From assembly GCA_963836285.1 (NCBI GenBank), contig CAWIIN010000002.1, positions 1,650,386 through 1,714,385 on the forward strand: a stretch of 64,000 nucleotides of DNA, in the 5' to 3' direction. Each line of letters starts with the position of its first letter. The stretch's first letter is position 1. Origin of the DNA: an uncultured Acidobacteriota bacterium. GTDB lineage: Bacteria; Acidobacteriota; Thermoanaerobaculia; UBA5066. Below the pieces are notes generated by a model, which made no database searches, had not been told where the DNA came from, and saw only the letters and a list, made by a program, of their open reading frames with translations. Positions 13,071 to 49,750 of the stretch are shown one piece after another. The translations under genes were made by a program, and so were the position numbers.

Positions 13071-14888
13071 ATGACGCCGGAGTTCGATCACTACTCGATT
13101 TCCCGCGTCCTCGGAGAGGGAGGGACGGGGGTCGTCTACCTCGCCAGGGACCAGCGGACCGGCCTCGACGTGGCGGTCAAGGTCGTGGCCCAGCGCGAGC
13201 TCGACGCCGTGCTCCGGGCCCGGTTGCCGAGGGAGAGCGCCGCGCTTGCCGCGCTCAGCCACCCGAACGTCGTGCGGTTCCACGAGTTCACCGAGTCCCA
13301 GGACGGCACGCTCGCCATCGTGACGGACTACGTGGACGGGTCGGACTTCCGCGCCTTCGAAGGGCTGCCGTTCCCCGAGCTCCTTCCGCTGATGGTCCAG
13401 GCCGTCCGGGGCCTCGCGTACCTGAGGAGCCGGGGCGTCGTGCACGGCGACCTGTCGTCGGACAACTTCCTCGTCGCCCTGGAGAGCGGGACGCGCGTGA
13501 CGAAGGTCGCCGACCTCGGGTTTTCGGCGCTCCTCCGCCCCGCGGACGCGGACGGCGCCTCGGGTGCGGGATCCGGACAGTTCGTCGGGAAATTCGCGTT
13601 TGCGTCCCCGGAGCATTTCTTCGCGTCGGACATCGACTGGCGGAGCGACGTCTACTCGCTCGGCGTCGTGTTTCACAGGCTCCTGACGAACGAGGCGCCG
13701 ATCACGGTGAGCCGCGAGTCGAGATACTTCGACTGGATGGTGGCCCACGAGAAGGAGCATGCGTTCGAGGTCCCGTCTCCGCCCGGCGGGCCCGCTCTGC
13801 CCGATGCGCTGCGGGACGTGGTCCGTCGAATGCTCGCCCGGTCCCGTGACCAGCGACCGCAGAGCTACGAGGAGATCCTCGACGCGCTCGACCGTGTCCG
13901 GCGCGTCGCCCCGGCGGAGCCGGGGCCCGCGGAGTCGGTCGAATCGTCGCAGCAGAAGAGGTGGCCGGACCTCGAGGTGCCGGAGCCGCACACGGAAAGG
14001 TTCGTCTCCTTCTCCGCGTCCCCATCGCACGCGATCCCCGCCGATCCCGGGCCGCCCTTCGAGGAGCGGCGCGTCGAGCCGCCCCCGGACCGCTTCGCGG
14101 TGGAGCCGCCTGGCTCCGAAGAGAGTCCGCTCCGCTTCGACTCGGGCTCGGACACGGCGCCGTCGTCCACGGAGCTGCTTTCGCCGCCGAGCCTGCAGGA
14201 CGCCGCGAGGACGGCTCCGACCGTCGTGACCGAGAGGCCGGAGAGAGACTCCGGCGACGCCCAGTGGACCGGAGGCGCCGCGAAGGACGCGCCTCCCGAA
14301 CCGGTCCGCGCGTCTCCCGCTCCTTCCGAGGAGAAAACCGAGCGGCTCGACGACGTCATCGAGAAGCTCAGGCAGCGATCTTCCCTGGAGCTCCTGCCGC
14401 CGTTGACGACGGTCCCACCGAGCCCGGAGCCCGCCGCGCCGGCGCCTCCGGCCCGCACCATCCCGACGCCTTCGCCCGCCCCGCTGCCGCCGGCCGCGCC
14501 GACCCCGCCGCCGCCGGGTCGCCGGTCCGAGCCCGCGGCCGCTCCGGTGCGTGCGGAGGTGCGGTCCGCACGGACGCCCTCGAAGCCGGGTCAGCGCGTC
14601 GTCGTCTACGGCGCTTCCCCTCCCGCCGCCACCGCTCCGCGCCGTGCGCCTGCGCCTCCTCCGCCGATCTCCACACCCGCGACCGCCGCGGGCGATCGGC
14701 GGCTCGGCCGGATCGGGATCGGGCTGATCGTCGCGGCCATCGTCGTCCTCTTCGCGGCCGTGCTGTGGGTCCTCGTCGCCGTCGCGCGCGGCGCGTCCGC
14801 CGGTGCGCCCCGCAGGACCAGCGCCACGGGCCGGGCGACGTCCGTCGCCTCAGCGCCCGCGGCATCCACCCACTCCGAGTTCGTGTGA
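13071..14888 (+). CDS. Hanks-type Ser/Thr protein kinase with Pro-rich linker and C-terminal TM helix (PpkA-like)
   Basis: GEGGTGVVY glycine loop, VAVK, HGDLSSDNFLV catalytic loop, DLGFS, SPE motif. The C-terminus is low-complexity Pro/Ala with a hydrophobic helix. Confidence 0.85.
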   Translation: MTPEFDHYSISRVLGEGGTGVVYLARDQRTGLDVAVKVVAQRELDAVLRARLPRESAALAALSHPNVVRFHEFTESQDGTLAIVTDYVDGSDFRAFEGLPFPELLPLMVQAVRGLAYLRSRGVVHGDLSSDNFLVALESGTRVTKVADLGFSALLRPADADGASGAGSGQFVGKFAFASPEHFFASDIDWRSDVYSLGVVFHRLLTNEAPITVSRESRYFDWMVAHEKEHAFEVPSPPGGPALPDALRDVVRRMLARSRDQRPQSYEEILDALDRVRRVAPAEPGPAESVESSQQKRWPDLEVPEPHTERFVSFSASPSHAIPADPGPPFEERRVEPPPDRFAVEPPGSEESPLRFDSGSDTAPSSTELLSPPSLQDAARTAPTVVTERPERDSGDAQWTGGAAKDAPPEPVRASPAPSEEKTERLDDVIEKLRQRSSLELLPPLTTVPPSPEPAAPAPPARTIPTPSPAPLPPAAPTPPPPGRRSEPAAAPVRAEVRSARTPSKPGQRVVVYGASPPAATAPRRAPAPPPPISTPATAAGDRRLGRIGIGLIVAAIVVLFAAVLWVLVAVARGASAGAPRRTSATGRATSVASAPAASTHSEFV

Positions 14889-14898
14889 AGGAGCCGCC

Positions 14899-15540
14899 AT
14901 GACCGACAACCGACCGCCACGCCCCGGCGACATCGACGCGACGGCCACGAGCGCGGGCGGAGGGACGTCGCTGCGCGACATGCTTTCCAACGCGCGCGCG
15001 CAGTCGAAGGGTCAGGGGGTGGTCCAGGGCTCCACGATCTTCTTCAAGAATCTCGCCGAGTCGATCGGTCACTCCAACCGCAACCTGAAGATCGGGCTCG
15101 CCTTCCTCACGGCGGCGTTCGTCGTCGTCGCGGCGGCTCTCGGCACGCTCATCTTCCAGGCGTTCCGGAGCCAGGTCGCGACGAAGACGACGCTCGAGCA
15201 GCAGATCCAGTCCATGGACGCCTCGACGCGCAAGCAGATCCAGCCCGTCCTCGACGCGATGACGGCGATGGAGAAAAAGCTCGCGGACCAGCAGGACGGC
15301 CAGCGGCGGGAGCTCGAAGGTGTGAGGCAGCTCCTCCAGGCCGACGTCGACGCGGCGAAGGCGGACGCGGCCGCGGCGCGCAAGGAAACGGCGGAGCTGC
15401 GCACGTCCCTGAAGGCCGTCGAAAAGTGGGCGGACGAATTCGGGAAGACGTACCTGCAGGACCGGGCCAACCTCGACACGCGCGTGCGGCGTCTCGAGGG
15501 CGCCCCGGCACCCGCGGCCGCACCGCCGGCGACGAAGTAG
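14899..15540 (+). CDS. Coiled-coil membrane protein of unknown function
   Basis: ATG at 14899 preceded by GAAGGAG. One TM helix (LAFLTAAFVVVAAALGTLIF) followed by a coiled-coil (QQIQSMD...AAKADAAAARKETAELR). Sits between the two kinases. Confidence 0.5.
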   Translation: MTDNRPPRPGDIDATATSAGGGTSLRDMLSNARAQSKGQGVVQGSTIFFKNLAESIGHSNRNLKIGLAFLTAAFVVVAAALGTLIFQAFRSQVATKTTLEQQIQSMDASTRKQIQPVLDAMTAMEKKLADQQDGQRRELEGVRQLLQADVDAAKADAAAARKETAELRTSLKAVEKWADEFGKTYLQDRANLDTRVRRLEGAPAPAAAPPATK

Positions 15541-15547
15541 GGATCGC

Positions 15548-16735
15548 GTGCGCTTCGGGTTCGGCCTCGAGGAGATCGAGCTCGGCGAAATGGTGGGCCG
15601 GGGGGGATCGGGAGAGGTGTTCGCGTCGCGGCACCGCCGGACGGGCGCGCGCCTCGCCGCGAAGGTCTATCCGTTCGACCGGATGGACCCGGCGTTTCGA
15701 CCGCGCGAGAGGTTCCATCGCGAGTGCCGCGTCCTCTCGAGGATGGAGCATCCGGCGTTTCCCGCCCTCTACGGCTGCGGCGAGGAGGACGACGGGAGCG
15801 CCGGGTGGGCGATCATGGAGTGGATCGAAGGAGAGCCTCTGTCCGCGTATCGGTCCGCGCCCCTTCCCGAGGTCGTCCGCCTCGCGCACGGGATCGCGTC
15901 CGCTCTCGACGCCCTGCACGTCCAGGGCGTCCTTCATCGGGACGTCGCGTTCGACAACGTCCTCGTCGAGAAGCGGAGGTTCGGTCCGAACCCGCGACTG
16001 ATCGACCTCGGCATCGCGAAGGACGTCGGTTCGAACGCGGACCTCACGATGGCCGGCGCCTTCCTCGGCCGCGTTCCGTTCGCCTCGCCCGAGCTCCTGA
16101 CGGAGGAAGGTGCGGCCGGCCTCGTGGACCCGCGCAGCGACGTCTTCTCGTTCGGCGTCCTCCTCTACGAGTGGCTGTCGGGACGGCCTCCATTTCCGGG
16201 AGAGACCCCGGAGCGCGTCATGAAGGCGCAGAAGCGGAAGTCGGCGCCGAGGCTCGTGCCCCGGGAAGGTGCCGAGGCCGCGAACGGAGGCCTGTCTGCC
16301 TTCGTGGAGAGCCTCCTCGCGACCGACATCGAGAGGAGGCCGGCCTCGGACGAAGTCGTGAGACGCCTGAGCGAATTCCGCGGGCTGTTTCCGCGCCACC
16401 CCCTGGAGACGGCTCCAGCGGCGGCGTCCACCTATCGCACGCCCGAGATCGGTTACGCGCTCCTCCCGAGACGCTTCGACGCGGCCCCCGTGTTTCCCAG
16501 GCTTCGGGCGGTGTCGTTTCCCGAGCCGTCACCCCGTGCGGCGGACGCCGGATCGCCGCGCGACGCCACGCCCCGGGCCGGGGGGGCACCCGCGCCAACG
16601 CCGGTTCCGGGCGCCGGAGCCGCCTCTGCGGGGCTCGGCTCGCGCCCGGGATTCGGCGGGCTGGTTCTGGCCCTTGGAATCCTCGCGTTCGTCGCGGCGT
16701 GCGCGCTGGCCGCGTTCCTCGTCTTCAGGAACTGA
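15548..16735 (+). CDS. Second Hanks-type Ser/Thr protein kinase with C-terminal TM anchor
   Basis: GRGGSGEVF, AAKVY, HRDVAFDNVLV, DLGIAKD, SPE motifs, and a C-terminal hydrophobic helix. Confidence 0.85.
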   Translation: MRFGFGLEEIELGEMVGRGGSGEVFASRHRRTGARLAAKVYPFDRMDPAFRPRERFHRECRVLSRMEHPAFPALYGCGEEDDGSAGWAIMEWIEGEPLSAYRSAPLPEVVRLAHGIASALDALHVQGVLHRDVAFDNVLVEKRRFGPNPRLIDLGIAKDVGSNADLTMAGAFLGRVPFASPELLTEEGAAGLVDPRSDVFSFGVLLYEWLSGRPPFPGETPERVMKAQKRKSAPRLVPREGAEAANGGLSAFVESLLATDIERRPASDEVVRRLSEFRGLFPRHPLETAPAAASTYRTPEIGYALLPRRFDAAPVFPRLRAVSFPEPSPRAADAGSPRDATPRAGGAPAPTPVPGAGAASAGLGSRPGFGGLVLALGILAFVAACALAAFLVFRN

Positions 16736-18203
16736 CGGCGGGAGACGCGGAGGGCCGGGGGGCCGGCGTCGCCGCCGGCTTTCCCCCGGACGCGGGCGGC
16801 GGGATGGTGGGTGTCGCCGTGTCCGTCGCGGTCGGCGTCGGCGTGTGAGTCGCCGTCGGCGTCTCGGTCGGAGTCGGCGGGTATTCGAGTGGCTGGAGGC
16901 CGCTGAGGACTGCCGGGGGACGGAACGACGGTTCGGCCGTCGCACGTGGGGGCTTCGGAGCGGAACGCGGGACCGCCGGCGCGGACGTGCCGCGTCCCGC
17001 CTGCTGTTTCCCCGATGGCGCGGGCGTCGCGGGGACCGGCGTCGGGGCGGGGGCGGGCGCCGCGACGGGGGCAGGCGTTGCGGCGGTGGCGACCGTCCCG
17101 ACGGGAGCCGCCGTCGAGGGAGCCGGCGCCGCCTCGGTCGGGCGCGCCGCGCGAGGAACGGCGGCCGGTTTTCCCGGCGAGGGCGCGAAGCGCCACAGGA
17201 AGTATGCGATCGCGACGACGACGGCGGCCAGAGCGACGCCCCCGGCGAGCAGCCGGCGTCCGCGCGGTCTGGGCGCCGGCTCTTCCGGGGGGCCTGAGGC
17301 GGCGCCCGCCACGAGAGTCTTGTCCGCTTCGTCCTCGACGCCCGGAGCGGGAGCGGTGACCGCGGGCACCCGTCCGGTCTTGCCGAGTCCGAGGCGCGCG
17401 GGCGTCCCGCGCGAGAGGATCGCGACGGAGACGTTGTCCTTCGAGCCGGCTTCGAACGCGAGGCGGTAGATCTCGTCGGCCGTCTCCTGGAGGCTCCCGG
17501 TCACCTCGAGAGCCGTCAGGAAGCGCTCGGCCTCGAGGACGTCGGTCACGCCGTCCGTCGTGAGGATGACGGCGTCGCCCGTGGCGAGGATCACGTCGCT
17601 CCGCACGTCGGGAACGACCTTCTTCTCCTGGCCGAGGCTTCGGGTGAGGGCGTGCGCGAACGGATTGCCGGAGTCGTCCTCGGGCGCGACGGAGTCCGAG
17701 CCGAGGGCCCGCCTCTGCTCGGCGAGCGCCGTGTGGTCGACGGAGAGCTGCCTCACCTTCAACCCGGAGACGAGGAAGATCTTGCTGTCGCCGACGTTCG
17801 CGACGACGAGCCGGCCGTCCGCGAGGATCATCGCGAACGCGACGGTGGCGCCCATCCCCTTCTGCTCGGCCGAGGCCTTCCCGCGCTGGTGGATCTCGCG
17901 GTTGATGTCGTCGATCCAGCCGCGGATCTCGGCCTCGAGGGCCTCCGGCGGAAGGGACGTGGCGTCTTCGCGCGCGGCGAAGAGGCGGACCTTCTCCCGC
18001 AGGATCTCGACCGTCATGCGCGAGGCGACCTCCCCGGCGTTGTGGCCGCCCATGCCGTCGCTGAGGACCGCGAAGGCGCGCAGGGCGGGGGAGGCGGGCA
18101 GGACCGCGAGGATCGCGGCATCCTCGTTCGATTCCCGCCGGCCCTTCTCGGAAAGGCCTCCCGCGAGGTACGGGGGCTGCGGAGTTTCCGCGTCGGCGCC
18201 CAA
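16725..18203 (-). CDS. PP2C-family Ser/Thr phosphatase (PppA-like) with Pro/Thr-rich tail and TM segment
   Basis: PP2C motifs (SDGMGGH, GATVA, DGVTD, SKDNVSV). C-terminal TM helix and low-complexity Pro/Ala/Thr region. Confidence 0.85.
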   Translation of the reverse strand: MGADAETPQPPYLAGGLSEKGRRESNEDAAILAVLPASPALRAFAVLSDGMGGHNAGEVASRMTVEILREKVRLFAAREDATSLPPEALEAEIRGWIDDINREIHQRGKASAEQKGMGATVAFAMILADGRLVVANVGDSKIFLVSGLKVRQLSVDHTALAEQRRALGSDSVAPEDDSGNPFAHALTRSLGQEKKVVPDVRSDVILATGDAVILTTDGVTDVLEAERFLTALEVTGSLQETADEIYRLAFEAGSKDNVSVAILSRGTPARLGLGKTGRVPAVTAPAPGVEDEADKTLVAGAASGPPEEPAPRPRGRRLLAGGVALAAVVVAIAYFLWRFAPSPGKPAAVPRAARPTEAAPAPSTAAPVGTVATAATPAPVAAPAPAPTPVPATPAPSGKQQAGRGTSAPAVPRSAPKPPRATAEPSFRPPAVLSGLQPLEYPPTPTETPTATHTPTPTATDTATPTIPPPASGGKPAATPAPRPSASPAVSS

Positions 18204-18213
18204 TGTCGCTCCC

Positions 18214-19032
18214 TCAGTCCTCGCGATAGGTCATGACGACGTCGCCGATCTCGATGCGGTCGCCGTGGACGAGTCGCCGCGAGGCGTTCTCCTCCATCTC
18301 CTCCCCGTTGACCCGCGCCGGATTCGTTCGCGCGTAGTTGATGAGGGAATAGGTCCGCCTGTCGAAGACCAGTTTGGCGTGCTTGCCGGAGACGGACGCG
18401 GGCAGGAGCTGGATGTGGCGGTATGGCGGTCCGGGGTCGCGGCCGATTGTCGTCTCGACGCGCTCGCCCGGCGCCGTCCGGAAGATCCGGATCTCGGTCT
18501 CCCGATCGCCCTCGTCGACCATGAATCGCCCCGGAAGCGTATCGAGGACGCCGGCGGGAGGCTGCCCGGCGTGAACGACGTCGCCGTCCGTCCATGCGGC
18601 CGGCGCGGGCCCGTCGGGGACGGGAGGCGGGGCCGCGGAGCGCGACGGCACGTTGATGACGACCGGCTTCTTGAGCAGGACCGCGAGCACGACGACGAGC
18701 GTCGCGAGGAGAACGAGGACGCCGATGCCGAGGAGGAGCACGACGCTTCCGGGCAGGCCGGCGATGCCCGCCGGGGCCGCGGCGGGGAGCCTCGTCGGGG
18801 CCGGAGTGATCTCGGCCGCCGGCTGCGGCGTCACCTCGGCCGCGGGTGCCGCGGGTGCCGCCGTGGGAGCGGGCGTGGGCGCGGGGGTCGCCGCCTCGCC
18901 TGCCGCGGGCAGCGGCGGCAGCGGAGGAAGCGTGGGGACCGGCGTCTGCGCGCCGGCCTCGAGGGACGTCAGGACCGCGGCGATCGCCGCCGCAAAGAAG
19001 ACCCGCTTCCTTAGGTCGCGGCCGTTTCGCAT
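18214..19032 (-). CDS. FHA-domain protein with N-terminal TM/Pro-rich region
   Basis: C-terminal FHA signature (GRDPG...IQLLPASVSGKHAKLVF...NGEEM...GDRIEIG). Start set at ATG 19032, preceded by GGGGGAG. The upstream 92 codons of the ORF were rejected. Confidence 0.8.
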   Translation of the reverse strand: MRNGRDLRKRVFFAAAIAAVLTSLEAGAQTPVPTLPPLPPLPAAGEAATPAPTPAPTAAPAAPAAEVTPQPAAEITPAPTRLPAAAPAGIAGLPGSVVLLLGIGVLVLLATLVVVLAVLLKKPVVINVPSRSAAPPPVPDGPAPAAWTDGDVVHAGQPPAGVLDTLPGRFMVDEGDRETEIRIFRTAPGERVETTIGRDPGPPYRHIQLLPASVSGKHAKLVFDRRTYSLINYARTNPARVNGEEMEENASRRLVHGDRIEIGDVVMTYRED

Positions 19033-19132
19033 CGTCTCTCCCCTCGATTCGTCTGCCGGGCCCTTTCCGGAGAGGATAACCGCACCGCCATTCCACGGGT
19101 ACCGGACCCGCGGGATCCCGCCGGAGCATGCG

Positions 19133-19945
19133 TCACGCGGGTCTCGAGGAGGGAAGGCGGACGGCGAGGAAGTCCTCCGGGTCGGGGCGATGCTCCGGCA
19201 CGAGCGACAGCCCGAGCCGGACCAGCTCCCGCGGGACGTCGGTCTCGGCGGACGCGCGCACCGGGGACGGGAGGGCCGAGAGCGCCATGGTCTTGTCGGC
19301 GTCTCCAATCGGAAGGTCGCCGGCGGCGTGCCCCTCGAGCAGCACGTGGATCTGAGCGGCGAGGCGGTACGCGAGCGCGGCGCGGGGCGAGGTGCCGCGC
19401 GCGCCGGCGCGGATCTCCGGCGCGAGGAATGGCGCCTCCTCGTCCACGGCCCCGAGTCCGGCGAGGCCGGACGCCCCGTCGTCGCGCCGCGGCTCGCAGA
19501 GGAACTCGTTCACACTCAGGTGGCGTGCCTCGAGCCGGGCTCCCTCGCGCAGGCGCTTCAGCTCGTGCAGAGGGATGTGAAGGCCCGCGAAGCCGCAATC
19601 GAGAGCCGCGATCTGGACCTCGGCGAGGGCCGTCATCGTGCCGCGCCGCGTCCGGTGACCGCCCCCCGCCACTGGCTCGGAGGTCTGGAATGCGATGTAA
19701 GCGCGCCCGGCGATCTCCGTCGAACCGAAGTCCAGGACGGGGGGAAGCAGGGGATGGTCGAAGAGCGCCGTCGCGCTGTAGATTGCGTCAACGGCCATCG
19801 CCGCGCCGCTCGAAGAGGGAACGAAGCCGTCGACGCGGACCCATGCCGGGACGCCGTCGAGGACGCGCGCCGCTCGGTAGCGCAGGCGCAGGCCCGTCTG
19901 CTCGGGCCCTTCGAGCAGCCGGTAACCCGGAAGCCACGAGGACAT
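19133..19945 (-). CDS. Hypothetical protein with degenerate protein-kinase-like fold (pseudokinase candidate)
   Basis: Kinase-like motif order (YRLLE...RVLDG..WVRV; HPLLPPVLDFG; PFLAPEI as an APE-like motif; LVPEHRPDPEDF) but no HRD or DFG catalytic residues. Immediately upstream of the FHA gene in the same orientation. Confidence 0.45.
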   Translation of the reverse strand: MSSWLPGYRLLEGPEQTGLRLRYRAARVLDGVPAWVRVDGFVPSSSGAAMAVDAIYSATALFDHPLLPPVLDFGSTEIAGRAYIAFQTSEPVAGGGHRTRRGTMTALAEVQIAALDCGFAGLHIPLHELKRLREGARLEARHLSVNEFLCEPRRDDGASGLAGLGAVDEEAPFLAPEIRAGARGTSPRAALAYRLAAQIHVLLEGHAAGDLPIGDADKTMALSALPSPVRASAETDVPRELVRLGLSLVPEHRPDPEDFLAVRLPSSRPA

Positions 19946-20992: not shown

Positions 20993-21943
20993 TTGCCTCA
21001 CGTCGAGCCGCCCGTCACACTCGCCCGGCTCCGCCACTACCGGAAGCTGACGAAGGCGGTGTCGGCGCATCTTCGCGCCCAGCTCGAGACGACGCTCGAG
21101 ACGCTCACGCCGCTCTTTCACGCCGAGACCGTCTTCGGGGACTACGTCCAGAAGAGCGTGCTGTCGGCCAAGGCCGAGGTCGAGGCGGGGCCGCGTGCCC
21201 AGCTCGGGCCCGACCGCTGGGGCCGCGGGTCGGAGCTCGCGATGGCGCGCGGGCCGGCCGCGCCACCGACGGCAAAGGAGCTCGAGGACGCCCGGAAGTA
21301 CGCGAAGGCGAACATCTCACTGAAGGAGGCCGTGAAGGGCGCCGACCGCGCGTTTCACGACCTCGAGAGCCTCTACGACGGTATCGCCAAGAAGAAGCCC
21401 TACGATCTCGGAATCGGCCTGACTCCGCCTCTCCCCATCAACACCGCGGCTCTCGAGATCCTCCCGCTGGACTATCCCCACGTCGCGCGCTCGGAGCGCC
21501 AGACGAAGCGCGTCATGGTCACGGCGCCTCTGACGTGGATCGTGACGTATGCGGGGTGCTCTCTCGGGCGCCTGCGCGCGCTCATCGCGGACCCGAACCG
21601 CTCACGCGACGAGCTCCAGCGCGTCCTGACGCACCACCTGCTCCTGCACGTCGTGCTGGAGCGCAAGAGCGGCCTTCGCGAGCTTCTCGAAGCGCTGAAT
21701 TTTCCCGTGAGGTCCGAAACGCTGCCGGAGTTCGGCGCGCTTCCCCTGACGGTCGTCACGTCGGCGGTGAAGACGGAGCGCCCGTCCGACGACGTCATCC
21801 TGGAGAGCACCGATCTTTCGGGCGTCGACGCGACCGAGGAGATCGTCCGCGTGACGAACGTCGCCGGAATGGTCGACAGGCGCCGGGCGCGCCTGCTCGA
21901 GATCGTCGAAGCCGAGGAGACCGGGGCGGGCGAAGACGCCTGA
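20993..21943 (+). CDS. Uncharacterised protein, paralog A of a tandem pair
   Basis: 316 aa, TTG start. Aligns along its whole length with the downstream ORF (LRHYRKLTKAVSAHLRAQLE / LRSLRKLTRAIAESLRTELK; PLDYPHVA / PLEYPHVA; TAPLTWIVTY / TQPLKWIVTY). Confidence 0.55.
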   Translation: MPHVEPPVTLARLRHYRKLTKAVSAHLRAQLETTLETLTPLFHAETVFGDYVQKSVLSAKAEVEAGPRAQLGPDRWGRGSELAMARGPAAPPTAKELEDARKYAKANISLKEAVKGADRAFHDLESLYDGIAKKKPYDLGIGLTPPLPINTAALEILPLDYPHVARSERQTKRVMVTAPLTWIVTYAGCSLGRLRALIADPNRSRDELQRVLTHHLLLHVVLERKSGLRELLEALNFPVRSETLPEFGALPLTVVTSAVKTERPSDDVILESTDLSGVDATEEIVRVTNVAGMVDRRRARLLEIVEAEETGAGEDA

Positions 21944-21976
21944 GGCGTCCCGCGACGAACGGAGGATTCACCCCAG

Positions 21977-22753
21977 ATGGACCAAGCGTACGACCTCCAG
22001 AAACTCCGGTCGCTCCGGAAGCTGACGCGGGCGATCGCGGAGTCGCTGCGCACGGAGCTCAAGGAGCATCTGGGCACCGTGACGCTCCTCTTCCGGCCGC
22101 GCACGATCCTGGGCGACTTCGTCGAGGGCAGCGTCAAGCGCGAGGTGAAGGGCTCGGACGTGGCATTCCGGGAACTGCGCAGCCGGTACGAGACCGTGGC
22201 AGGGGGGCGACCCTACGGGCTCTCGAAGGAACTGAATCCCCCGATCGAAATCCTGAACACGAACGTGGAGCTCGTCCCGCTCGAGTACCCGCACGTCGCA
22301 AAGGAAGGGTCGGAAACGAGGACGATCACCGTCACGCAGCCGCTCAAGTGGATCGTGACGTATTCGGGACTTGCACCCACGCGCCTCCGGGAGCTCATGG
22401 CGGCCAAGATCCCCGACGCCTCGCAGGTGAAGGAAATCATCGTGCACGCGCTCGTTCTGAACACCGTGCTCACGAGGCAACCGGGGCTTCTCGCGGTCTT
22501 CGAGGCTCTTCGCTTCCCCGTCGTCACCGAGAAACTGCCCGGCCTGGGCGAGCTCCCCGTCACCTGCATCTCCTCGAGCGTGCGGACGGTGCGGCCGCCG
22601 GACGACGTCCTGATCGAGAGCACGGAGATTTCGGGCCTGAACGCGTTCGAGGAAGTCGTGAATGCCAACGACATCGTGCAGATGCAGGACCCCTTCCGCG
22701 AAAGGCTCCTCGAGGTCATCAAGGAAAACGCGCCCGAGGCCCTGAAGGGCTGA
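21977..22753 (+). CDS. Uncharacterised protein, paralog B of a tandem pair
   Basis: 258 aa, ATG preceded by GGAGG. About 35-40% identity to paralog A by eye. Confidence 0.6.
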   Translation: MDQAYDLQKLRSLRKLTRAIAESLRTELKEHLGTVTLLFRPRTILGDFVEGSVKREVKGSDVAFRELRSRYETVAGGRPYGLSKELNPPIEILNTNVELVPLEYPHVAKEGSETRTITVTQPLKWIVTYSGLAPTRLRELMAAKIPDASQVKEIIVHALVLNTVLTRQPGLLAVFEALRFPVVTEKLPGLGELPVTCISSSVRTVRPPDDVLIESTEISGLNAFEEVVNANDIVQMQDPFRERLLEVIKENAPEALKG

Positions 22754-22786: not shown

Positions 22787-24343
22787 TCAGGCCTCGAGCA
22801 ACGCCAGGCGGCCCACGCGCTCGAAGTTCGAGGCGATTCCCTCCTCGACGTCGGCGGCGAGAGCCGCGTTCGCGGGGTCCCGCTCCCGAAGGGCGGCTTC
22901 CATCTCAGCGGTGATCGCCGCGCGGCCGCGCGTGCCGTCCAGGAGCAGGAGAAACGTCCGCACGAGCGGGTCCTCGAGCCGGATCGACTGGTGCCTGAGG
23001 TTCGTGACCGGCGCCGACGTGCGCGCCTGGAGGCGGGCGAGGGCGCTCGCGCGCGGGCGCTCCGAGACCTCCGTGACGAAGGGGCACGGCGCGCTCTTAA
23101 GGTCGGCGAGGTCGGCGCCATAGGCCGCGAGAAGGAAGCGGAGCAGGCGAGCCTCGTCCTCGGTGGTGGCGGCCCGCCCGCCGGAGGAAGACAAACGGGC
23201 CCGGGCCGCGGAGAAAAGGTCCGTCGTCCGTATCCATCGAGGCCAGATACGCCCGAGCTCGAGAAACGCCGCCTTCGAGAGGGGATGCGACGTCGTCAGC
23301 TCGCCTTCCTTCTCGAACGTGAAGCTCATCGGCGCGTCGGATGCCACGTCGGCGCCGGAGGACGGTCTTGTGCTCGCGCAGACGTGAAGGGCGCGGATGG
23401 CCTCGGGGTCCGGCTCGTGAGAAGGGGAGGCGGCTTCCCTGCAGAGGAGCGTCTGGCGGAAGCGCCGGAAGAGCAGGAAATCGCGGTACTGTTGCTGGAG
23501 GATCAGGTTCTCGGAGCCCACCGCGAGGAGGAACCGGCCGGCCGGGCTGTCCTCCTTCCAGACGGTCATGTCGGAGTAGTCGGCTTCCGAAAGGAACTTG
23601 AGACCGTGTCGGGCCGCGCGCTCGACGAAGTCGACGAAAAGGAGGGGCTCGTTGATCTCGGCCAGGTCGTCGTGGAACAGGACGGCGTCCGGCTGGCTCG
23701 CCAGGTGGTCGATCGTCTCGCGCAGGATCGCCGAGTAGACAGGACGTGGCGGAGCCGCATCCCCGAGGAGCCGCACGAGACCCCGCGCCTGCTCGATTCT
23801 CGAGGCGGGCTCCTCCTCGCCCCGCACGTGCCAGCGCATCATCTGGCGTACGGCGTTCCTCACATGGCATCCCGGGAGCGCGTTGTAGCTCACGTACGCG
23901 ACGCCGTTCGGAGCGAGCGACTCGGAGGCGATCGCGAACACCCGCTCCTGGACGGCAGGCGGCACCCACGAGTAGAGGCCGTGCGCGACGACGTAGTCGA
24001 ACGTGCCGAGTCCGGAGACGTCCAGGAGGTCGGCGTGCTCGAGCGTCACGTTCGCGAGACCGAGGGCGGAAACCTGCGCCTGCCCCTGCTCGATGGCGGA
24101 GCGCGCCGCGTCGAGGCCGAGGAAGGTGCTTCCGGGAAGGGCGTATGCCATCGGGACGAGATTTCCCCCGTTCCCGCAGCCGAGCTCGAGCACGCGGCAG
24201 CGTTCGGGAGGAGCGGCGCTGAGGCCGTACAGCGCCGCGATCGTCGCGAGGCGGTCCGGATGTGCCTGGCAGAACGGCGAGCCGGGATACGAGACGGAAT
24301 CGTATGGGGTCGGCTCGTTTTCGGGCATCGGGTCCGCGATCAT
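22787..24343 (-). CDS. Class I SAM-dependent methyltransferase fused to a C-terminal methyltransferase-regulatory-like domain
   Basis: Start ATG 24343 (MIADPMPENEP). LELGCGNGGNL SAM motif I. Long C-terminal domain resembling the MethyTransf_Reg architecture. The upstream 274 codons of ORF 22787..25165 were rejected. Confidence 0.65.
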   Translation of the reverse strand: MIADPMPENEPTPYDSVSYPGSPFCQAHPDRLATIAALYGLSAAPPERCRVLELGCGNGGNLVPMAYALPGSTFLGLDAARSAIEQGQAQVSALGLANVTLEHADLLDVSGLGTFDYVVAHGLYSWVPPAVQERVFAIASESLAPNGVAYVSYNALPGCHVRNAVRQMMRWHVRGEEEPASRIEQARGLVRLLGDAAPPRPVYSAILRETIDHLASQPDAVLFHDDLAEINEPLLFVDFVERAARHGLKFLSEADYSDMTVWKEDSPAGRFLLAVGSENLILQQQYRDFLLFRRFRQTLLCREAASPSHEPDPEAIRALHVCASTRPSSGADVASDAPMSFTFEKEGELTTSHPLSKAAFLELGRIWPRWIRTTDLFSAARARLSSSGGRAATTEDEARLLRFLLAAYGADLADLKSAPCPFVTEVSERPRASALARLQARTSAPVTNLRHQSIRLEDPLVRTFLLLLDGTRGRAAITAEMEAALRERDPANAALAADVEEGIASNFERVGRLALLEA

Positions 24344-24405
24344 AGAACGGCGGCTCCTGGTCATCCCTCGCGCTAGACTCGGTCGCGATCCTGAGGAGGC
24401 CGCGA

Positions 24406-25889
24406 TGCCGAAGAGCCCGCCATCCCGCGACGTCGACGTGAGGCTGGGGACGGAGACGGCGCCCGCGCCGCTCGACCCTGACGCCCCGTTCCGGCTGCTC
24501 GTGATCGGCGACTTCGGCGGCGCCGGGACCGGGCCCCTCGTGACCCCTCGTGCCGTGGACCGGGATGTCCTCGAGGACGAGATGCGCCGCCTGCGGGCGA
24601 CCGTGGACGTGCCCGTCGGCGACGGGGAGGAAGCCCGCATCGACCTGCGAGAGCTCGACGACTTCCACCCCGACCGGCTTCTCGAACGCGTCGAGGCTCT
24701 GGCGGCGTGGGGGAGGACGCGCGAGCGCCTCGAGGACCCCCGCACGTTCGGCGACGCGGCGCGCGACATGCGCGCGTGGGCGGGAACGGCTCCCGTGAAG
24801 CCGGCAGAGGCGCCGGCGTCCGCTGCCGCCGCGGCGGACGACATCGTGGGCGATCTCCTCGCGGGGGCCGCCCGGCGGGCGAAACCCGCCGCGGACGCCG
24901 CGTTCGAATCCGAGGTGAAGGCGATCGTGCGGCCGCATCTCGCCCCCGAGGAGGATGCCGATCTGCCGCGCCTCCGGCAGGCGCTGGACGACGTCCGCTC
25001 GAGCCTGCTGCGGACGATCCTCGCGCACGCCGGGTTCCGTAGGGTCGAAGCCGCGTGGCGCTCGCTCGATCTCCTCGTGCGCCGGGTCGACGACGAGTCC
25101 GTCCGCGTCTTCTTCCTCGACGCGCCCCGCGACGTGCTTCTCGAGGACCTCACGCGCCACGACACCCTCTCGGCGACCGGCCTGTACCGGTGCCTCGTCG
25201 CCGAGACGGTCGAGACGCCGGGAGCCGAGCCCTGGGGCGCGATCCTCGGTCTCTATGACTTCGGGCCGACGCTCGCCGACGCCGCCCTCCTCTCGCGGAT
25301 CTCGAAGCTCGCCCGTGCCGCGGGCGCCCCGTTCCTCTCCGGCGCGCGCTCCGATTTCGTCGGTTGCGCGTCGCTCGCCGTGACGCCGGATCCCTCGGAC
25401 TGGCGCACGCCCGCGGGAGAAGGCGCGCTCGTCTGGGACGAGCTCCGGGCACTGCCGGAGGCGACGTGGATCGCACTCGCCCTGCCGCGGCTCATGCTGC
25501 GCCTGCCGTATGGAACGAAGACGGACCCGATCGACACATTCGCGTTCGAAGAGGTGCCCGGCGTGCCGTCGAACGGAGATTATGTGTGGGGAAATGGAGC
25601 CGTCGCGTGCGCCCTCGTTCTCGCGGGCGCCTTCGAGCAGGACGGGTGGTCCCTGCGTCCCGAGACCGCGGCCGAGATTACGGGCCTTCCGACGCACGTC
25701 TTCAAGGACGGCCTCGAGACCCGCGTGACGCCGCCCTCCGAAGTCGTCCTCACGATGCGCGCCGCCGACAAGATTCTCGAGGCCGGTCTCGTCCCCGTGC
25801 TTTCGCTGAAGGGGAGCGAGAGCGTGCGCGTCGCGCGCCTGCAGGCGATCGCGAGCCCGCTCCGCGCACTCGCGGGACGCTGGAGCTAG
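24406..25889 (+). CDS. Orphan single-chain TssB-TssC fusion (sheath-like) protein
   Basis: Residues ~30-110 align with TssB/VipA from this same window (FRLLVIGDFGG vs FVVGVLGDFSG; IDLRELDDFHPDRLLERVEAL vs MKFNNMMDFEPDQVVQQVEPL). The remainder aligns with TssC (LPRLMLRLPYG vs LPHTLMRLPYG; FAFEEVPG vs FNFEEDVDG; GLPTHVF vs GLPAHTF). Confidence 0.7.
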
Positions 25890-26849: not shown

Positions 26850-28088
26850 CTAACGAGGCCCGCGCGCGCTCTGCGGGGAGGCTTCGAGATCGGCGGCCCG
26901 GCCCTTCCAGGTTCCATCGAGCGTGCCGCGTAGCCGAGTCTCCCACAGGGACTCGCGGTCGAGCGCCTCCAGCGCGCTTTCGGGGCAGCCGTGCGAGAGG
27001 TCGATTCCGCGGCACCAGCGCGTGCCCTTCTCGAAGTCCGGGCGGCGCTCTTCCCACGCCGCCCGCGCTTTCCGTTCGTCCGGAAGAGCGACCTCATCGA
27101 GGAACTCGGCCTCGAACGCGTCGGGCTCCTGTCCGTCCGCGGGAGGCACGACCGTGCGGCGCCCCGAGTCCACGTCCTCGCCGGTGATTTTCGTGAAGGC
27201 CTCACCCGCAAAGGCTGCCGCGGCGAGGTCGAGGCCCGCCATTGCGCGGAGGAGCGCGTCGACGCCGCCGGGATGTCCGAGCGTGCCGAGGAGGCGGAAG
27301 CGCTCCGGGCCGGCGCCGACGCCCCGGACCCACTCGAGGACGCGCTCGAGATCCGCGGCGTTGCCCGTCGCGGCGACGAGCAGCATCGAGTCGGGATCGG
27401 CGGCAGGGCCGCGGCCGCGGCGAGTCTCCTCGAGGACCCATGCCTGCCGGCACCAGAGGGCGGCGCGGCGCGCGCCGGCGCGCACGCCGGGATCCGGGTC
27501 CGCGAGCCCGCGCTCGAAGACCGTCCGGCCCTGCGGAAACGGGGCAAGGGCGACGACCCGCCACGCCTTCAGGCGGACCGCGGGCTCATCGGATGCGAGC
27601 CACGCCTCCTGGGCGCGTCCGTCGGGCCGCAGACGCCCGCGCAGCGCGAGCGCCTCGGCCGCCGCCGCGGAGCGAAAGGGCTCCGCGGAGGAGACGGCGT
27701 CCTGGAGGCGGGGAAGGAGCATCTCGGCCGGGCCGTGGGCGAACGCCTCGGCGAGCCCTTCGGCGCGCGCCCCCGTCGCCGACGCGAACGCCTCCCAGAC
27801 GCGGTCGGTCGCATCGGGAAGCCTCGAGCGCAGGAGGCCGTAGCCGGCGGCGAACGCCTCGTCGGCGTCGTCGCCTTCGAGGCCGGGACGGACGAATGCC
27901 GCGAGCTCGTCGCCCGCGATGAGGAGACCCTCGAGATGCGCCTCGATCCGCTTCTCGAGACGGTCGAGGTCGCGCGGAAAAAAGCGACGCGACGTCAGCG
28001 CGTGCCGACGCTGCCCCCACAGGAACGCGAGCTCCTCGAAATGCTCCTCGACGAGGTCGGGCAGGAACTTCAGCGGGGCGTCGGGCAT
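26850..28088 (-). CDS. HEAT-like (PBS-lyase type) repeat protein, possibly TIGR02270-like
   Basis: 412 aa, repeated D-P-x-x-x-V-R-x-x-A pattern (PDPGVRAGARRAAL, EPAVRLKAWRVVAL). Family assignment is tentative. Confidence 0.5.
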   Translation of the reverse strand: MPDAPLKFLPDLVEEHFEELAFLWGQRRHALTSRRFFPRDLDRLEKRIEAHLEGLLIAGDELAAFVRPGLEGDDADEAFAAGYGLLRSRLPDATDRVWEAFASATGARAEGLAEAFAHGPAEMLLPRLQDAVSSAEPFRSAAAAEALALRGRLRPDGRAQEAWLASDEPAVRLKAWRVVALAPFPQGRTVFERGLADPDPGVRAGARRAALWCRQAWVLEETRRGRGPAADPDSMLLVAATGNAADLERVLEWVRGVGAGPERFRLLGTLGHPGGVDALLRAMAGLDLAAAAFAGEAFTKITGEDVDSGRRTVVPPADGQEPDAFEAEFLDEVALPDERKARAAWEERRPDFEKGTRWCRGIDLSHGCPESALEALDRESLWETRLRGTLDGTWKGRAADLEASPQSARGPR

Positions 28089-28107
28089 TGCCGGGGCACG
28101 CTGCTTC

Positions 28108-28545
28108 TCAATTGAGGGAGACGGACCCGCCCTTGATGCGGTTCATGCGTTTCGCGTGCGAGACGAGGTCCTTGCCCTTGATGAGGATCTTCCCGTCGGC
28201 GCGGATCTCGATCGAGCCCTCCCCGACGCGGAGGACGAGGCCCTTCTTCGCCTCGAGGACGAGCTCGCCGGGGAGTCGCGCCTCATCACCGGCCGAAGAC
28301 CCGATGCGGCCGACGACGACGGCGCGGGACCCTTCGGGCGGAATCCAGACGAGGACGTCATCGCCGGGGAGAAAGGCGAGAGGGGAAGCATCCGACGTCC
28401 GGAGCGTGTCGGCGGCAAACGCGGCCTTCTCGTCCGAAACCGTCACGCTCAAGGCACCGTGCTCGTCGACGTCGAGGACCTTGGCGCGTTGAAGGGTGGC
28501 GGGCACGCGGACGGCCTCGTGAGGTCTCTGTGGTCGCATCGTCAT
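28108..28545 (-). CDS. Small gpV/gp5-like OB-fold spike-domain protein (tentative)
   Basis: 145 aa. N-terminal OB-like segment (AKVLDVDEHGALSVTV...PGDDVLVWIPPEGSRAVVVGRI) and C-terminal beta-strand repeat (IEIRADGKILIKGKDLV) resemble phage baseplate protein V. Confidence 0.4.
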   Translation of the reverse strand: MTMRPQRPHEAVRVPATLQRAKVLDVDEHGALSVTVSDEKAAFAADTLRTSDASPLAFLPGDDVLVWIPPEGSRAVVVGRIGSSAGDEARLPGELVLEAKKGLVLRVGEGSIEIRADGKILIKGKDLVSHAKRMNRIKGGSVSLN

Positions 28546-28575
28546 CGTCCCTCCCTTCAGGAGCCTCGTCGGTGC

Positions 28576-29151
28576 TCAGACGAAGGCGTCGCCGGGCTCG
28601 AGGAACTCGAGGTTGCCGAAGCCCGCCGCACGGAGGTGGTCACGGATCTTCTCGTGAACCCAGATGCTGCCGGTGGCTTCGGCCAGGCGGAAGACGAGAG
28701 CCCCGCGAGCCTTCTTCGGGTCGAGCACGAGGTCGTCGAACTCGACGTCGATCACGGGACCGCCGGTCCGAATCGTCGCCCGCGATTTCGCCATGTCGGC
28801 CGCGGCGACGAGCCCGACGACGTTGGCGGCCCGATAGTTCCGGTACGAGCGCTTTCCGTCCGGCTCCCGGATCTCGGCCGGGTAGTAATCGATGTTGTCG
28901 ACGCCCGCGGCCGCAAGCGCGTCGATGAGGTCGTCGCGGAACAGCGGGATCGTGCCGTCGAAGAGCTCGGGCATTTCCGCCCCGTGGTCCTTCGCATCCG
29001 GATTGAGGGGTTTCAGCGGGAAGACGAGGGGGTTCGGAACGGCCACGCCGATCCGGGTGCCGAGATCGAAATCGGCCTCCCGGATGAACGGCCAGCTGTC
29101 GATCCAACGGCAAGGGTGCTTGGCGCCGAACCGTTCGAGCAGGTAGTACAT
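28576..29151 (-). CDS. Putative immunity protein for the AHH nuclease
   Basis: ATG at 29151 lies 9 nt after the toxin stop, with GGAGG overlapping the stop (TAGGAGGCTGCATG). 191 aa with no signal peptide. The upstream 75 codons of the ORF overlap the toxin and were rejected. Confidence 0.55.
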   Translation of the reverse strand: MYYLLERFGAKHPCRWIDSWPFIREADFDLGTRIGVAVPNPLVFPLKPLNPDAKDHGAEMPELFDGTIPLFRDDLIDALAAAGVDNIDYYPAEIREPDGKRSYRNYRAANVVGLVAAADMAKSRATIRTGGPVIDVEFDDLVLDPKKARGALVFRLAEATGSIWVHEKIRDHLRAAGFGNLEFLEPGDAFV

Positions 29152-29159
29152 GCAGCCTC

Positions 29160-38729: not shown

Positions 38730-39434
38730 TCATGACGTCTGTTCGTTGAGATAGAGGCCGTCCAGCGAGCTTCGCGACGCGCTCGCCTCGCTCTCGCGGC
38801 CGGAACAGCGCTGAATGAAGTAGGCGAGGAGAAGGGTGGATGCGAGGACTGTCGCCCTTCCGAGCTCGGAATACGAGCTCTCGGCGGCCTCGCCGGTCCG
38901 ATAGAGCTCGTCGCCCTTCGCGTGCTCCCTCGAGTCCTGGGCCGTGTACTCGTAGAGGTCCTTGATGACGAGTCGCCCGTGCTCGTCCTTCTCCCGCTTG
39001 ACGTGGGCGGGCGAGAACGAGTCCTGCACCGCGTGCAGCGCCTGGCCGAGGTTGGACTTGGCGCCCGTGATGTCGCCCTTGCGGAAATGGAAGACGGCCG
39101 AATCGGCCGCGCCCCAGAGAGAGTCCTTCGCGAGCTTGAACGACTCGGCGGCCGTCCGGCCGGGAAGGCGCATGAAGTGCTGCATCTGTCCCCATTCCCG
39201 CCAGTGGCCCTGCGTGAGGACGCCGTCGAGGTCGGGGACCTGGACGAAACCGGCCATCGCTCCCAGGACGTCCTTCAGCTGCTCCCTCTGGGCCGCAGAC
39301 ATCCCCCCGAGGGCACCGCCCGTCTCCGCCCGCAGGAGTGACGTGGCGGCGGCGTCCGCCGACATCCTCGCGTGCCCGCCGAGAGGCCAGGCAAGGATCG
39401 TCGAGACCGCTTCCTTCAGGATCGTGCTATGCAT
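38730..39434 (-). CDS. Hypothetical protein with zinc-enzyme-like H-x3-D-x4-P-x-H motif (phospholipase C or S1/P1-nuclease-like; candidate effector)
   Basis: 234 aa. LHAVQDSFSPAHV resembles the LHYLGDVNQPMH zinc-ligand block of Zn-dependent PLC and P1 nucleases. Lies between clpV and vgrG. Confidence 0.4.
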   Translation of the reverse strand: MHSTILKEAVSTILAWPLGGHARMSADAAATSLLRAETGGALGGMSAAQREQLKDVLGAMAGFVQVPDLDGVLTQGHWREWGQMQHFMRLPGRTAAESFKLAKDSLWGAADSAVFHFRKGDITGAKSNLGQALHAVQDSFSPAHVKREKDEHGRLVIKDLYEYTAQDSREHAKGDELYRTGEAAESSYSELGRATVLASTLLLAYFIQRCSGRESEASASRSSLDGLYLNEQTS

Positions 39435-39446
39435 CGCGGCCGGTCC

Positions 39447-42170: not shown

Positions 42171-42219
42171 GAACGCTTCCTTCCTCTCTGTCTTTTCGTG
42201 CTCTTTTCGGGGCCCTATC

Positions 42220-45547: not shown

Positions 45548-45609
45548 GCGCGCTGCCGGGGCGGATGCCGGGGCCGGCGAGTTTTCGCAGGCCCCGGATC
45601 GTTCCGTCC

Positions 45610-47629: not shown

Positions 47630-47640
47630 GGCTCCCTCCC

Positions 47641-49686: not shown

Positions 49687-49750
49687 TCGGGAGTGGGGGA
49701 GAGGAGGACCCCCGCGCGAGGCGGAGGTCCTCCGGGTGCGCGTCGATTCT

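Follow-up and report, generated by a model that had tools for sequence, protein, structure and literature searches.

Tandem paralogs in a Thermoanaerobaculia genome belong to a previously undescribed protein family linked to T6SS gene clusters

The tandem genes and their surroundings

The window analyzed here, a 64,000-nt stretch of DNA from an uncultured Acidobacteriota bacterium of the Thermoanaerobaculia, carries two adjacent forward-strand genes that an earlier note, made from the sequence alone, had described as tandem paralogs of 316 and 258 aa. Both open reading frames were found exactly where the note had placed them: paralog A (20993..21943, +) has a TTG start and encodes 316 aa, and paralog B (21977..22753, +) has an ATG start and encodes 258 aa in a single domain. 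A GGAGGA sequence, read as the ribosome-binding site of B (21961..21966, +), lies 10 nt before its ATG. The homology claimed over the whole length is borne out by BLASTP (37% identity, E 1e-61), which aligns residues 10–306 of A with residues 7–249 of B at 54% positives and with a single gap; the gap corresponds to an insertion in A (21146..21340, +) that also forms a block in the alignment of A orthologs. The similarity is far beyond chance, and A and B are paralogs. The shared blocks PLDYPHVA/PLEYPHVA and PLTWIVTY/PLKWIVTY are present as described, and the block L.KLR..RKLT is exact in B but reads L.RLR..RKLT in A.

Both genes have a coding-type GC3 (0.87 for each) and, in comparisons with orthologs from five related genomes, dN/dS values of 0.13–0.23 (A) and 0.10–0.17 (B); both are under purifying selection. 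The intergenic gap of 33 nt implies that A and B are co-transcribed; a scan found no terminator-like sites in 19900–24500, and a promoter scan around the pair found nothing. B is identical to database protein P0001, and each of its 302 homologs is annotated 'hypothetical'.

The kinases to which the earlier note had referred were identified by Pfam as two Hanks Ser/Thr kinases (13071-14888 and 15548-16735, both +); a PP2C phosphatase (16725-18203, −) and an FHA protein (18214-19308, −) follow them, also by Pfam. Together, these four genes (13071..19308) make up a threonine-phosphorylation module. An ORF at 20055-20799 was considered YkgJ/FliB-like on the basis of a C-x3-C-x2-CC motif; Pfam did not confirm this.

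Downstream, and convergent with B, lies a PKMT-like class I methyltransferase (22787..24340, −; PF10119 at E 3e-19, PF21782 at E 2e-13), in which Pfam recognizes MethyTransf_Reg and PKMT_2nd winged helix domains. The sheath-like neighbor that the earlier note had seen is a truncated TssB-TssC fusion ('VipAB-like', 494 aa; 24405..25889, +) with Pfam matches to VipA (residues 10–111) and VipB (residues 193–474). The fusion has no VipB_2 match (Pfam), scores 179 bits vs. a TssC equivalog cutoff of 271.5, and aligns to residues 73–358 of TssC at 29% identity; it thus lacks the TssC N-terminal ~72 aa as well as the C-terminal gp25-like domain, and could not serve as an ordinary polymerizing subunit. 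A type VI secretion system (T6SS) block (26850..59338, −; Pfam and NCBIfam) contains a TIGR02270/HEAT protein, a PAAR-like protein, an AHH toxin, DUF2169, two VgrG and ClpV; TssG, TssF, TssE, TssC, TssB, TssA and TagJ (+ strand); and two Hcp, TagF, TssM, TssL and TssK. A further FHA protein is encoded at 59421-62501. Separate, canonical TssB and TssC are therefore encoded in the window's T6SS cluster, and every core T6SS gene but TssJ is separately present in the window.

Family spread, fold and the two copies

A profile search places A and B in a family of 528 cluster representatives at 50% identity, found in all major classes of Acidobacteriota, in the gammaproteobacterium Nitrincola and in a Gemmataceae MAG; tblastn searches of plasmids, queried with B and the Nitrincola member, yielded no homolog. 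The genome scan relied on a different family alignment from that of the distant members, which proved too divergent. Neither A nor B has a Pfam match above cutoff or an NCBIfam, PHROGs or PDB sequence match, in agreement with the claim that they belong to no recognized family, and Pfam and NCBIfam models likewise did not match 61 other members or the distant members. A sub-threshold hit to WAV3_C (Pfam; 18.8 bits vs. a cutoff of 39.1) was dismissed as chance because it occurs in only 2 of 63 members, and a profile search of PDB sequences returned only noise (E 1.7). The database searches assigned no clear housekeeping family; such an assignment would have refuted the earlier note's reading.

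Column counts over 63 diverse members define an N-terminal motif, R14-x-x-T17-x-x-[I/V/L]20 of B (22016..22036, +), with R in 59/63, T in 57/63, S in 5/63 and I/V/L at +3 in 54/63; the equivalent in A is R17..T20..V23 (21041-21061, +). In the same 63 members E226 is invariant and D209, G46, G220, and Y104 are near-invariant; A and B retain every invariant residue of the family. The protein appears from its sequence to be a soluble alpha/beta protein of ~29 kDa with neither signal peptide nor membrane segment (maximum KD19 1.3, hydrophobic segment absent; pI ~6) and is likely cytoplasmic.

Structure prediction, which the earlier note had proposed alongside a Pfam check, gave confident AF2 models (B, pLDDT 90.4 and pTM 0.86; A, pLDDT 83.6, with secondary-structure elements ordered as in B), and Foldseek searches with the family model recovered no recognizable relative. 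The top-ranked matches were Bet3/TRAPP, V4R (the MopR/PoxR sensor) and H-NOX ligand-binding alpha/beta domains, whose general layout, helices at the N-terminus and then an antiparallel sheet with helices packed against it, is also that of the family; these recurring weak matches were rejected because their TM scores were only 0.1–0.18. The helix-helix-helix-hairpin at residues 136–199 of B could be read as a winged-helix-like DNA-binding unit, which would make the family a transcriptional regulator of T6SS genes; neither profile nor fold searches recognized a winged-helix/HTH DNA-binding domain in the family, and we consider such a role improbable.

Tandem duplication is limited to the Thermoanaerobaculia clade of the window, and elsewhere the family is single-copy. 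A orthologs at ≥67% identity occur in close relatives only, and in an NJ tree A sits on a long branch while B nests among the single-copy homologs; the tree is compatible both with a recent duplication after which A evolved faster and with an older origin of A as a paralog. B is the conservative copy and resembles the family at large (~250 aa), whereas A is the diverged one. The insertion in A comprises 65 residues (about residues 52–116; the BLASTP gap is 54 residues long), with QLGPDRWGRGSEL and E-[DE]-A-[RK]-KYAK as the stretches conserved among A orthologs. In the AF2 model pLDDT falls below 50 at residues 57–74, 76–88, and 105–111, and the insertion is predicted to be disordered apart from a helix at 94–106; it is a candidate partner-binding segment. 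A single ancestral gene would have been duplicated, with B retaining the ancestral form and A acquiring a conserved, intrinsically disordered insertion, probably for binding an extra partner; A and B would most likely act as a hetero-oligomer.

Linkage to T6SS clusters and relation to known accessory factors

Among the 20 independent loci flanked on both sides by 8 kb or more of sequence, 17 have the family within or at the edge of a T6SS cluster; T6SS genes occur in 23 of the 36 independent loci overall, and most of the 13 without one are short contigs. In Blastocatellia/Pyrinomonadaceae the family lies at the edge of the T6SS cluster, after ClpV-VgrG-effectors-PAAR; in a Holophagales locus (L030) it adjoins TssK-L-M-TagF-Hcp-TagJ; in Nitrincola lacisaponensis (WP_036543690.1) it stands mid-operon, between PP2C/TPR and TssA-TssB-TssC; and the linkage recurs in other Acidobacteriota MAGs and the Gemmataceae MAG. 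The family is very likely a T6SS-associated accessory family, and probably a T6SS helper or regulator, by the guilt by association that its gene neighborhood provides. The alternative that the pair has no functional T6SS tie, whether it merely hitch-hikes with the island, serves as an effector chaperone or immunity protein, or has some unrelated housekeeping function, could draw on the family's position near a variable effector region and on the loci with no T6SS gene within 10 kb (that of P0118 and the well-flanked L037, L040, and L053, the last three all with adjoining STK and PP2C genes). The linkage, however, recurs in five or more classes of Acidobacteriota as well as in a planctomycete MAG and a gammaproteobacterium, in which the gene is placed mid-operon, and no plasmid homologs were found. 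Moreover, the effectors beside the family vary (AHH, GH-E, PG-binding, RHS) and are unrelated to one another while the family itself remains 40–50% identical, so that it is hard to see it as an effector, an immunity protein or a chaperone; we regard the absence of any tie as very improbable.

The TssB-TssC fusion is found near the family in 9 of the 36 independent loci. It lies directly 3′ of the family gene, 30–170 nt away on the same strand, in seven distant acidobacterial lineages (L028, L029, L032, L035, L038, L041, and L042), adjoins the family in L048 and is close by throughout the window clade. A reverse context check ruled out strict coupling of the two, the fusion occurring also without the family. 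The recurrent adjacency raises the possibility of a dedicated partnership, in which the family would serve the fusion as chaperone, cap or assembly factor and the two together would modulate sheath polymerization, length or recycling, with the kinase linkage incidental; a fusion missing both the N-terminus of TssC and the gp25-like handshake domain plausibly requires a partner. Yet L049, L050, and L051 have the fusion on its own or flanked by ClpV and VgrG, and no member of the family lies within 8 kb of it, the other 27 of the 36 family loci, the Nitrincola operon included, have no fusion nearby, and the family model has no structural similarity to PDB structures of the sheath, TssE/gp25, TssA or TagJ. 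A sheath partner is thus an unlikely, if conceivable, role.

In 8 of the 36 independent loci (L054 and L032 among them) the family has a PF10119/PKMT_2nd methyltransferase next to it or nearby. This gene is tandemly multiplied in L013 and L020; in the window clade it is the adjacent convergent gene, and in L054 it directly precedes the family gene in the same orientation. If the family were its substrate or its specificity or regulatory subunit, methylation would add a layer of control to the T6SS. However, the remaining 28 loci have no such methyltransferase nearby, a literature search found nothing linking protein methylation to T6SS sheath biology, and there is no Lys among the near-invariant columns (just 28 of the 63 members have K at position 15), so that a conserved Lys-methylation site is unlikely; a role of this kind is accordingly rated as rather improbable.

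The recurrent T6SS linkage in multiple independent lineages is what operationally marks a T6SS-associated gene (TAG), and TAGs of unknown function have been catalogued, including TagO/VasI, the Burkholderia TagB/TagC and the Bacteroidales TagA-C (2026 review of accessory factors, PMC13584744). Like these, the family is non-core and turns up repeatedly within or next to the T6SS clusters of several taxa; unlike them, it is chiefly a family of the Acidobacteriota, which the review does not mention, and has no sequence relation to any listed TAG having a Pfam or NCBIfam model; the family itself is absent from the catalog (PMC13584744). A, B, and 61 other members match none of the Pfam/TIGRFAM models for core TssA-TssM and PAAR, and neither profile nor fold relates the family to TagF, TagJ/ImpE, TssA/TagA ImpA_N, VasI/TagO, DUF2169/Tvp, DUF3540, DUF4123, or DUF1795, nor does its fold match solved T6SS proteins. 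Although its gene often has a TssB-TssC-derived neighbor and lies in the region of the cluster that also holds ClpV/VgrG, the family has no sequence or structural similarity to the TssB/TssC sheath or the gp25-like TssE. Literature searches on the T6SS in Acidobacteria, on the methyltransferase and on accessory factors found no description of the family, which we regard as not previously described: a new, likely cytoplasmic TAG family without a recognizable fold relative.

Knowledge of the T6SS rests almost wholly on Pseudomonadota and Bacteroidota models, and the T6SS-i has been described as restricted to Pseudomonadota (PMC13584744). A conserved family with a confident yet unrecognizable fold, which spans a phylum whose members abound in soil and occurs also in a cultured gammaproteobacterium, offers a concrete, testable handle on the control of non-model T6SSs. 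The set of neighbors with which it recurs is new as well: a truncated sheath fusion, a protein methyltransferase, and a kinase with its phosphatase together hint at T6SS regulatory layers still undescribed. Even if it proves merely a minor modulator, it supplies databases with a clean new domain-family definition.

A possible phosphorylation-coupled role

The earlier note had suggested that the pair might be structural or adaptor components or substrates of the nearby kinases; the tie to the T6SS and to kinases holds strongly in comparative genomics, and no single one of these roles is singled out. The reading that we tentatively favor, at somewhat below even odds, is that the family is a phosphorylation-coupled regulator of the T6SS. 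Inside the cell it would act as a regulatory or assembly adaptor, neither a core structural part nor a toxin, coupled to the Ser/Thr kinase-PP2C-FHA checkpoint by which T6SS assembly is licensed. Of the 36 independent loci, 15 have STK/PP2C genes no farther than 10 kb from the family; L053 shows the arrangement STK, family, STK, PP2C, and the gene next to the family in L054 encodes a 1661-aa kinase. Acidobacteriota are rich in kinases, and we estimate a probability of ~20% that one lies within ±10 kb by chance, so some of the STK proximity is possibly background. The methyltransferase and the truncated sheath fusion, equally recurrent neighbors, point to other mechanisms.

Agrobacterium TssL is phosphorylated at an N-terminal Thr, and Fha1/TagH is known from P. 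aeruginosa. Like these two and TagF, the family is predicted to be cytoplasmic and is encoded with PpkA-like kinases, PP2C, and FHA proteins, but it is homologous to none of them, and Fha, TssL, and TagF are all separately encoded in the window. Many FHA domains prefer an aliphatic residue at +3, and the family resembles targets of T6SS phosphorylation pathways in its near-invariant N-terminal Thr with an aliphatic +3; a conserved Thr with a hydrophobic +3, as FHA docking calls for, is found in the motif across the 63 members. FHA domains are not known to bind Ser, the residue that 5 of the 63 carry at this position. A Thr phosphorylated in this pathway would be expected in a flexible, accessible segment, whereas T17 falls within a helix predicted at residues 7–34 of B with pLDDT >90, which argues against its accessibility; a Thr in so confidently modeled a helix would be atypical both as a kinase acceptor site and as an FHA ligand.

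A more elaborate version of the phosphorylation-coupled reading would make the family a phospho-acceptor and docking hub. PpkA-type kinases would phosphorylate the N-terminal Thr of R-x-x-T-x-x-aliphatic, an FHA protein would dock on the phosphorylated Thr, and the new-fold protein would then license sheath assembly via the truncated TssB-TssC fusion; the PKMT-like methyltransferase would contribute a second layer of modification, and the A/B heterodimer that duplication created in Thermoanaerobaculia would combine two inputs. If true, this would be a T6SS regulatory module without counterpart in the Pseudomonadota model systems; that the kinase, FHA, fusion, methyltransferase, and heterodimer steps all hold jointly is, in our estimation, a long shot.

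The tandem gene pair and its duplication

Two adjacent genes, A (20993–21943, +; TTG start, 316 aa) and B (21977–22753, +; ATG start, 258 aa), had been described in the earlier note as homologous over their whole length, and both were found as given. BLASTP aligns essentially the full span of each protein (37% identity, 54% positives, E = 1e-61) with a single gap of 54 residues caused by an insertion in A, and the shared blocks PL(D/E)YPHVA, PL(T/K)WIVTY, and L..LR..RKLT are present. In a window of ~70% G+C, placed by its relatives in public data within Thermoanaerobaculia (Acidobacteriota), both frames have a coding-type GC3 of 0.87; a GGAGGA site lies 10 nt 5′ of the B ATG, the A stop and B start are separated by 33 nt, no terminator-like site was found between the genes, and dN/dS against orthologs from five related genomes is 0.13–0.23 for A and 0.10–0.17 for B. 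These sequence features indicate that A and B are a constrained paralogous pair that is predicted to be co-transcribed. The pair is real, and existing annotation gives no explanation of it.

Orthologs of A (at least 67% identity) are limited to close relatives of the window, and elsewhere the family is single copy, with the exception of one acidobacterial MAG (L033) that carries an independent, divergently oriented duplication at 98–889 (−) and 1739–2581 (+), which shows that the family is prone to duplication. In a neighbor-joining tree, which does not date the A/B duplication, B nests among the single-copy homologs and A occupies a long branch; thus A is the diverged copy. Every invariant family residue is kept in A. 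AlphaFold2 models the insertion (residues 52–116) as disordered except for a helix at 94–106, yet A orthologs keep its sequence well (QLGPDRWGRGSEL; E-[DE]-A-[RK]-KYAK); predicted disorder combined with such conservation typifies linear binding motifs. As retained tandem paralogs, A and B may reasonably be expected to form a hetero-oligomer.

Directly upstream of A, a Cys-rich 248-aa ORF (20055–20799, +) carries the motifs C-x3-C-x2-CC and C-P-F-L...C-x-I-H-x-x-R-P-x-x-C-R-E-Y, which we take to resemble those of the YkgJ/FliB (flagellin lysine methylase) Cys-rich family; Pfam returned no match to it even at E 5. This ORF is kept upstream of the pair across the whole clade and also lies beside the family gene at locus L029. 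Between it and the FHA gene is a 270-aa ORF (19133–19945, −) without a family match, conserved in all close relatives (51–89% identity).

An undescribed family and its distribution

The statement that the pair matches no recognized family was upheld by Pfam, NCBIfam, PHROGs, and PDB-sequence searches: A and B fall below every Pfam cutoff, NCBIfam gave no match for A, B, or distant members, PHROGs gave none, and a family profile run against all PDB sequences returned only noise (E = 1.7). A sub-threshold Pfam match to WAV3_C (18.8 bits vs. a cutoff of 39.1) was seen in only two of 63 members and was rejected as chance. With a 58-sequence alignment as input, AlphaFold2 gave a confident model of B (pTM 0.86, mean pLDDT 90.4), which consists of an N-terminal helical segment (helices 7–34, 42–48, and 60–76), a long beta-hairpin (97–110/113–129), three helices, a second hairpin (182–186/194–199), and C-terminal helices; the elements of the A model follow one another in the same way, and pLDDT in its core is >90. 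Foldseek found no match at E ≤ 1e-3 in the full PDB or among viral predicted structures. Bet3/TRAPP, V4R sensor domains, and H-NOX came up time and again as its best-ranked matches, a resemblance that at TM 0.10–0.18 is a lead and not a relationship. Membership tests placed the family outside core type VI secretion system (T6SS) components, named T6SS-associated gene (TAG) families, sheath/gp25 domains, Bet3/V4R/H-NOX folds, and HTH regulators; that its members are transcription factors is improbable. The family is undescribed and without a detectable fold relative.

Residue conservation was counted over 63 diverse members (B numbering): E226 occurs in all of them, G46 and G220 each in 62, P207 and D209 each in 61, P122 in 59, and Y104 and G191 each in 58. 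Near the N terminus, R14 (59/63), T17 (57/63, with Ser in 5/63), and an aliphatic side chain at residue 20 (54/63) make up a conspicuous motif. Many FHA domains prefer T-x-x-I/L/V; T17 lies within a confidently predicted helix of the B model, which weakens the idea of FHA docking. Neither A nor B has a hydrophobic segment and the pI of each is near 6, so both proteins are probably cytoplasmic.

B has 302 word-indexed homologs, each unnamed or "hypothetical," and an exhaustive profile search recovered 528 representatives (50% clustering), nearly all of ~250 aa and single-domain. A scan with one genome per GTDB species yielded 42 loci from Thermoanaerobaculia, Blastocatellia/Pyrinomonadaceae, Holophagales, Terriglobia/Bryobacteraceae, Vicinamibacteria, and Chloracidobacterium, together with two MAGs assigned elsewhere. 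One of these, from Gemmataceae (Planctomycetota; L047), has a member at 47% identity in a T6SS context, which points to the cluster having been transferred horizontally; the other, labeled Acidithiobacillales (L019), has a member at 75% identity and the full window-type gene order, and mis-binning is more likely than transfer. A distant member, WP_036543690.1, is encoded by the cultured gammaproteobacterium Nitrincola lacisaponensis.

Linkage to T6SS clusters

After near-identical loci were merged, T6SS genes were detectable at 23 of 36 independent loci, and at 17 of the 20 having at least 8 kb on each side. In Blastocatellia and other lineages the family gene lies at the cluster edge, after ClpV-VgrG-effector-PAAR; in a Holophagales MAG it adjoins TssK-L-M-TagF-Hcp-TagJ; in Nitrincola it sits within the structural operon between a TPR protein and TssA (Fha-TssJ-TssK-TssL-TssM-TagF-PP2C-TPR protein-family-TssA-TssB-TssC-TssC-TagJ-TssE-TssF-TssG-kinase). 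The genomic linkage of the family with T6SS clusters is robust across several phyla, and a family with no real tie to T6SS is scarcely credible. Effectors beside the family gene vary by locus (AHH, GH-E, RHS, and PG-binding proteins) and the family itself stays 40–50% identical, which speaks against its being an effector, an immunity protein, or a chaperone. We infer that its members serve the T6SS as cytoplasmic accessory factors.

The window encodes a complete T6SS-i-type cluster (TssA, B, C, E, F, G, K, L, and M) that also holds two Hcp, two VgrG, ClpV, TagF, TagJ, Fha, and a DUF2169/PAAR-like/AHH effector region. TssJ, present in the Nitrincola cluster, is the only core component missing among the scanned window ORFs: no TssJ-like lipoprotein (T6SS-SciN) was found among those scanned in 26850–63421, a set that takes in part of the small ORFs. 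In a 2026 review of accessory factors of the T6SS (PMC13584744), T6SS-i is said to be limited to Pseudomonadota, no comparable protein is listed, and neither Acidobacteriota nor methyltransferases are mentioned. The family fits the operational definition of TAGs, recurrent cluster association, and is therefore filed as a new member of this heterogeneous class. A phylum-wide, fold-orphan T6SS accessory family is worth specialist follow-up and does not overturn current understanding.

The spike-loading module (26850–32517, −; TIGR02270/HEAT, AHH nuclease toxin, Tox-PAAR-like, DUF2169, and a 145-aa protein that matches DUF3540 weakly) resembles Tvp (DUF2169/DUF4150) accessory complexes (PMC13373197), and a HEAT-PAAR-DUF2169 set also occurs at L024, L047, and L048. 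The AHH toxin region (28001–30000) is lower in G+C (0.644) than its flanks (~0.70–0.72) and strongly AT-skewed, as would fit an effector cassette that has been exchanged. The second VgrG (35983–38691, −) has a C-terminal Peptidase_M91 effector domain and is an evolved VgrG.

Recurrent neighbors and candidate roles

The recurrent neighbors of the family are kinases/PP2C, a PKMT-like methyltransferase, and a truncated TssB-TssC sheath fusion. The window block adjoining the T6SS holds two Hanks Ser/Thr kinases, a PP2C phosphatase, and an FHA protein, and Ser/Thr kinases and PP2C lie within 10 kb of the family at 15 of 36 loci. All three well-flanked loci without T6SS genes (L037, L040, and L053) have kinase and PP2C, in the order kinase/family/kinase/PP2C at L053; at L054 a 1661-aa kinase is immediately beside the family gene. 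From gene neighborhood, the reading that we tentatively favor is that the family would act as an adaptor or regulator in a kinase/phosphatase/FHA checkpoint, because kinases/PP2C are the sole neighbors that remain where no T6SS gene is within reach and because the Nitrincola operon has kinase/PP2C and lacks both fusion and methyltransferase.

The fusion (24405–25889, +) joins a TssB N-terminal part to TssC residues ~73–358, lacks the ClpV-binding TssC N-terminus and the C-terminal gp25-like domain, and scores below the TssC equivalog cutoff; canonical TssB and TssC are encoded separately alongside it, and it cannot polymerize as a normal sheath subunit does. Public pipelines label it "contractile sheath large subunit/ImpC," and it has >600 relatives of ~500–525 aa. 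That the family is a partner of this fusion is unlikely, though the fusion is directly 3′ of the family gene in seven distant lineages, beside it in an eighth, and not far from it in the window clade: it is absent from the Nitrincola operon, and at L049–L051 it occurs without a family member within 8 kb, alone or between ClpV and VgrG (L049 and L051), which rules out obligatory coupling. The link of the pair to the sheath-like gene and the kinases, proposed in the earlier note, is partly supported.

The PKMT-like methyltransferase (22787–24340, −; PF10119 regulatory domain and PKMT winged-helix), located inside the T6SS accessory block, is near the family at 8 of 36 loci, directly upstream at L054 and directly convergent in the window clade; its homologs are tandemly duplicated or triplicated at L013 and L020 and recur in T6SS contexts of distant lineages. 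We found no literature linking protein lysine methylation with T6SS sheath biology. It is doubtful, and more so than the fusion partnership, that the family is a substrate or subunit of this enzyme, which is absent from the Nitrincola operon.

Bordering the kinase block is a Porphyromonas-type peptidyl-arginine/agmatine deiminase (11941–13176, −; PF04371, E = 3e-112), a position kept in the relatives L009, L011, and L017. At Chloracidobacterium-like loci (L032, L034, L035, L041, and L042), the methyltransferase-family-fusion module is preceded by a 1091-aa protein (at L032, 3231–6506, +) in which an ABC transporter (ATPase and ABC-2 permease) is joined to three FHA domains, and is followed by an FHA-DUF4123 fusion; both are unusual FHA architectures for a T6SS context.
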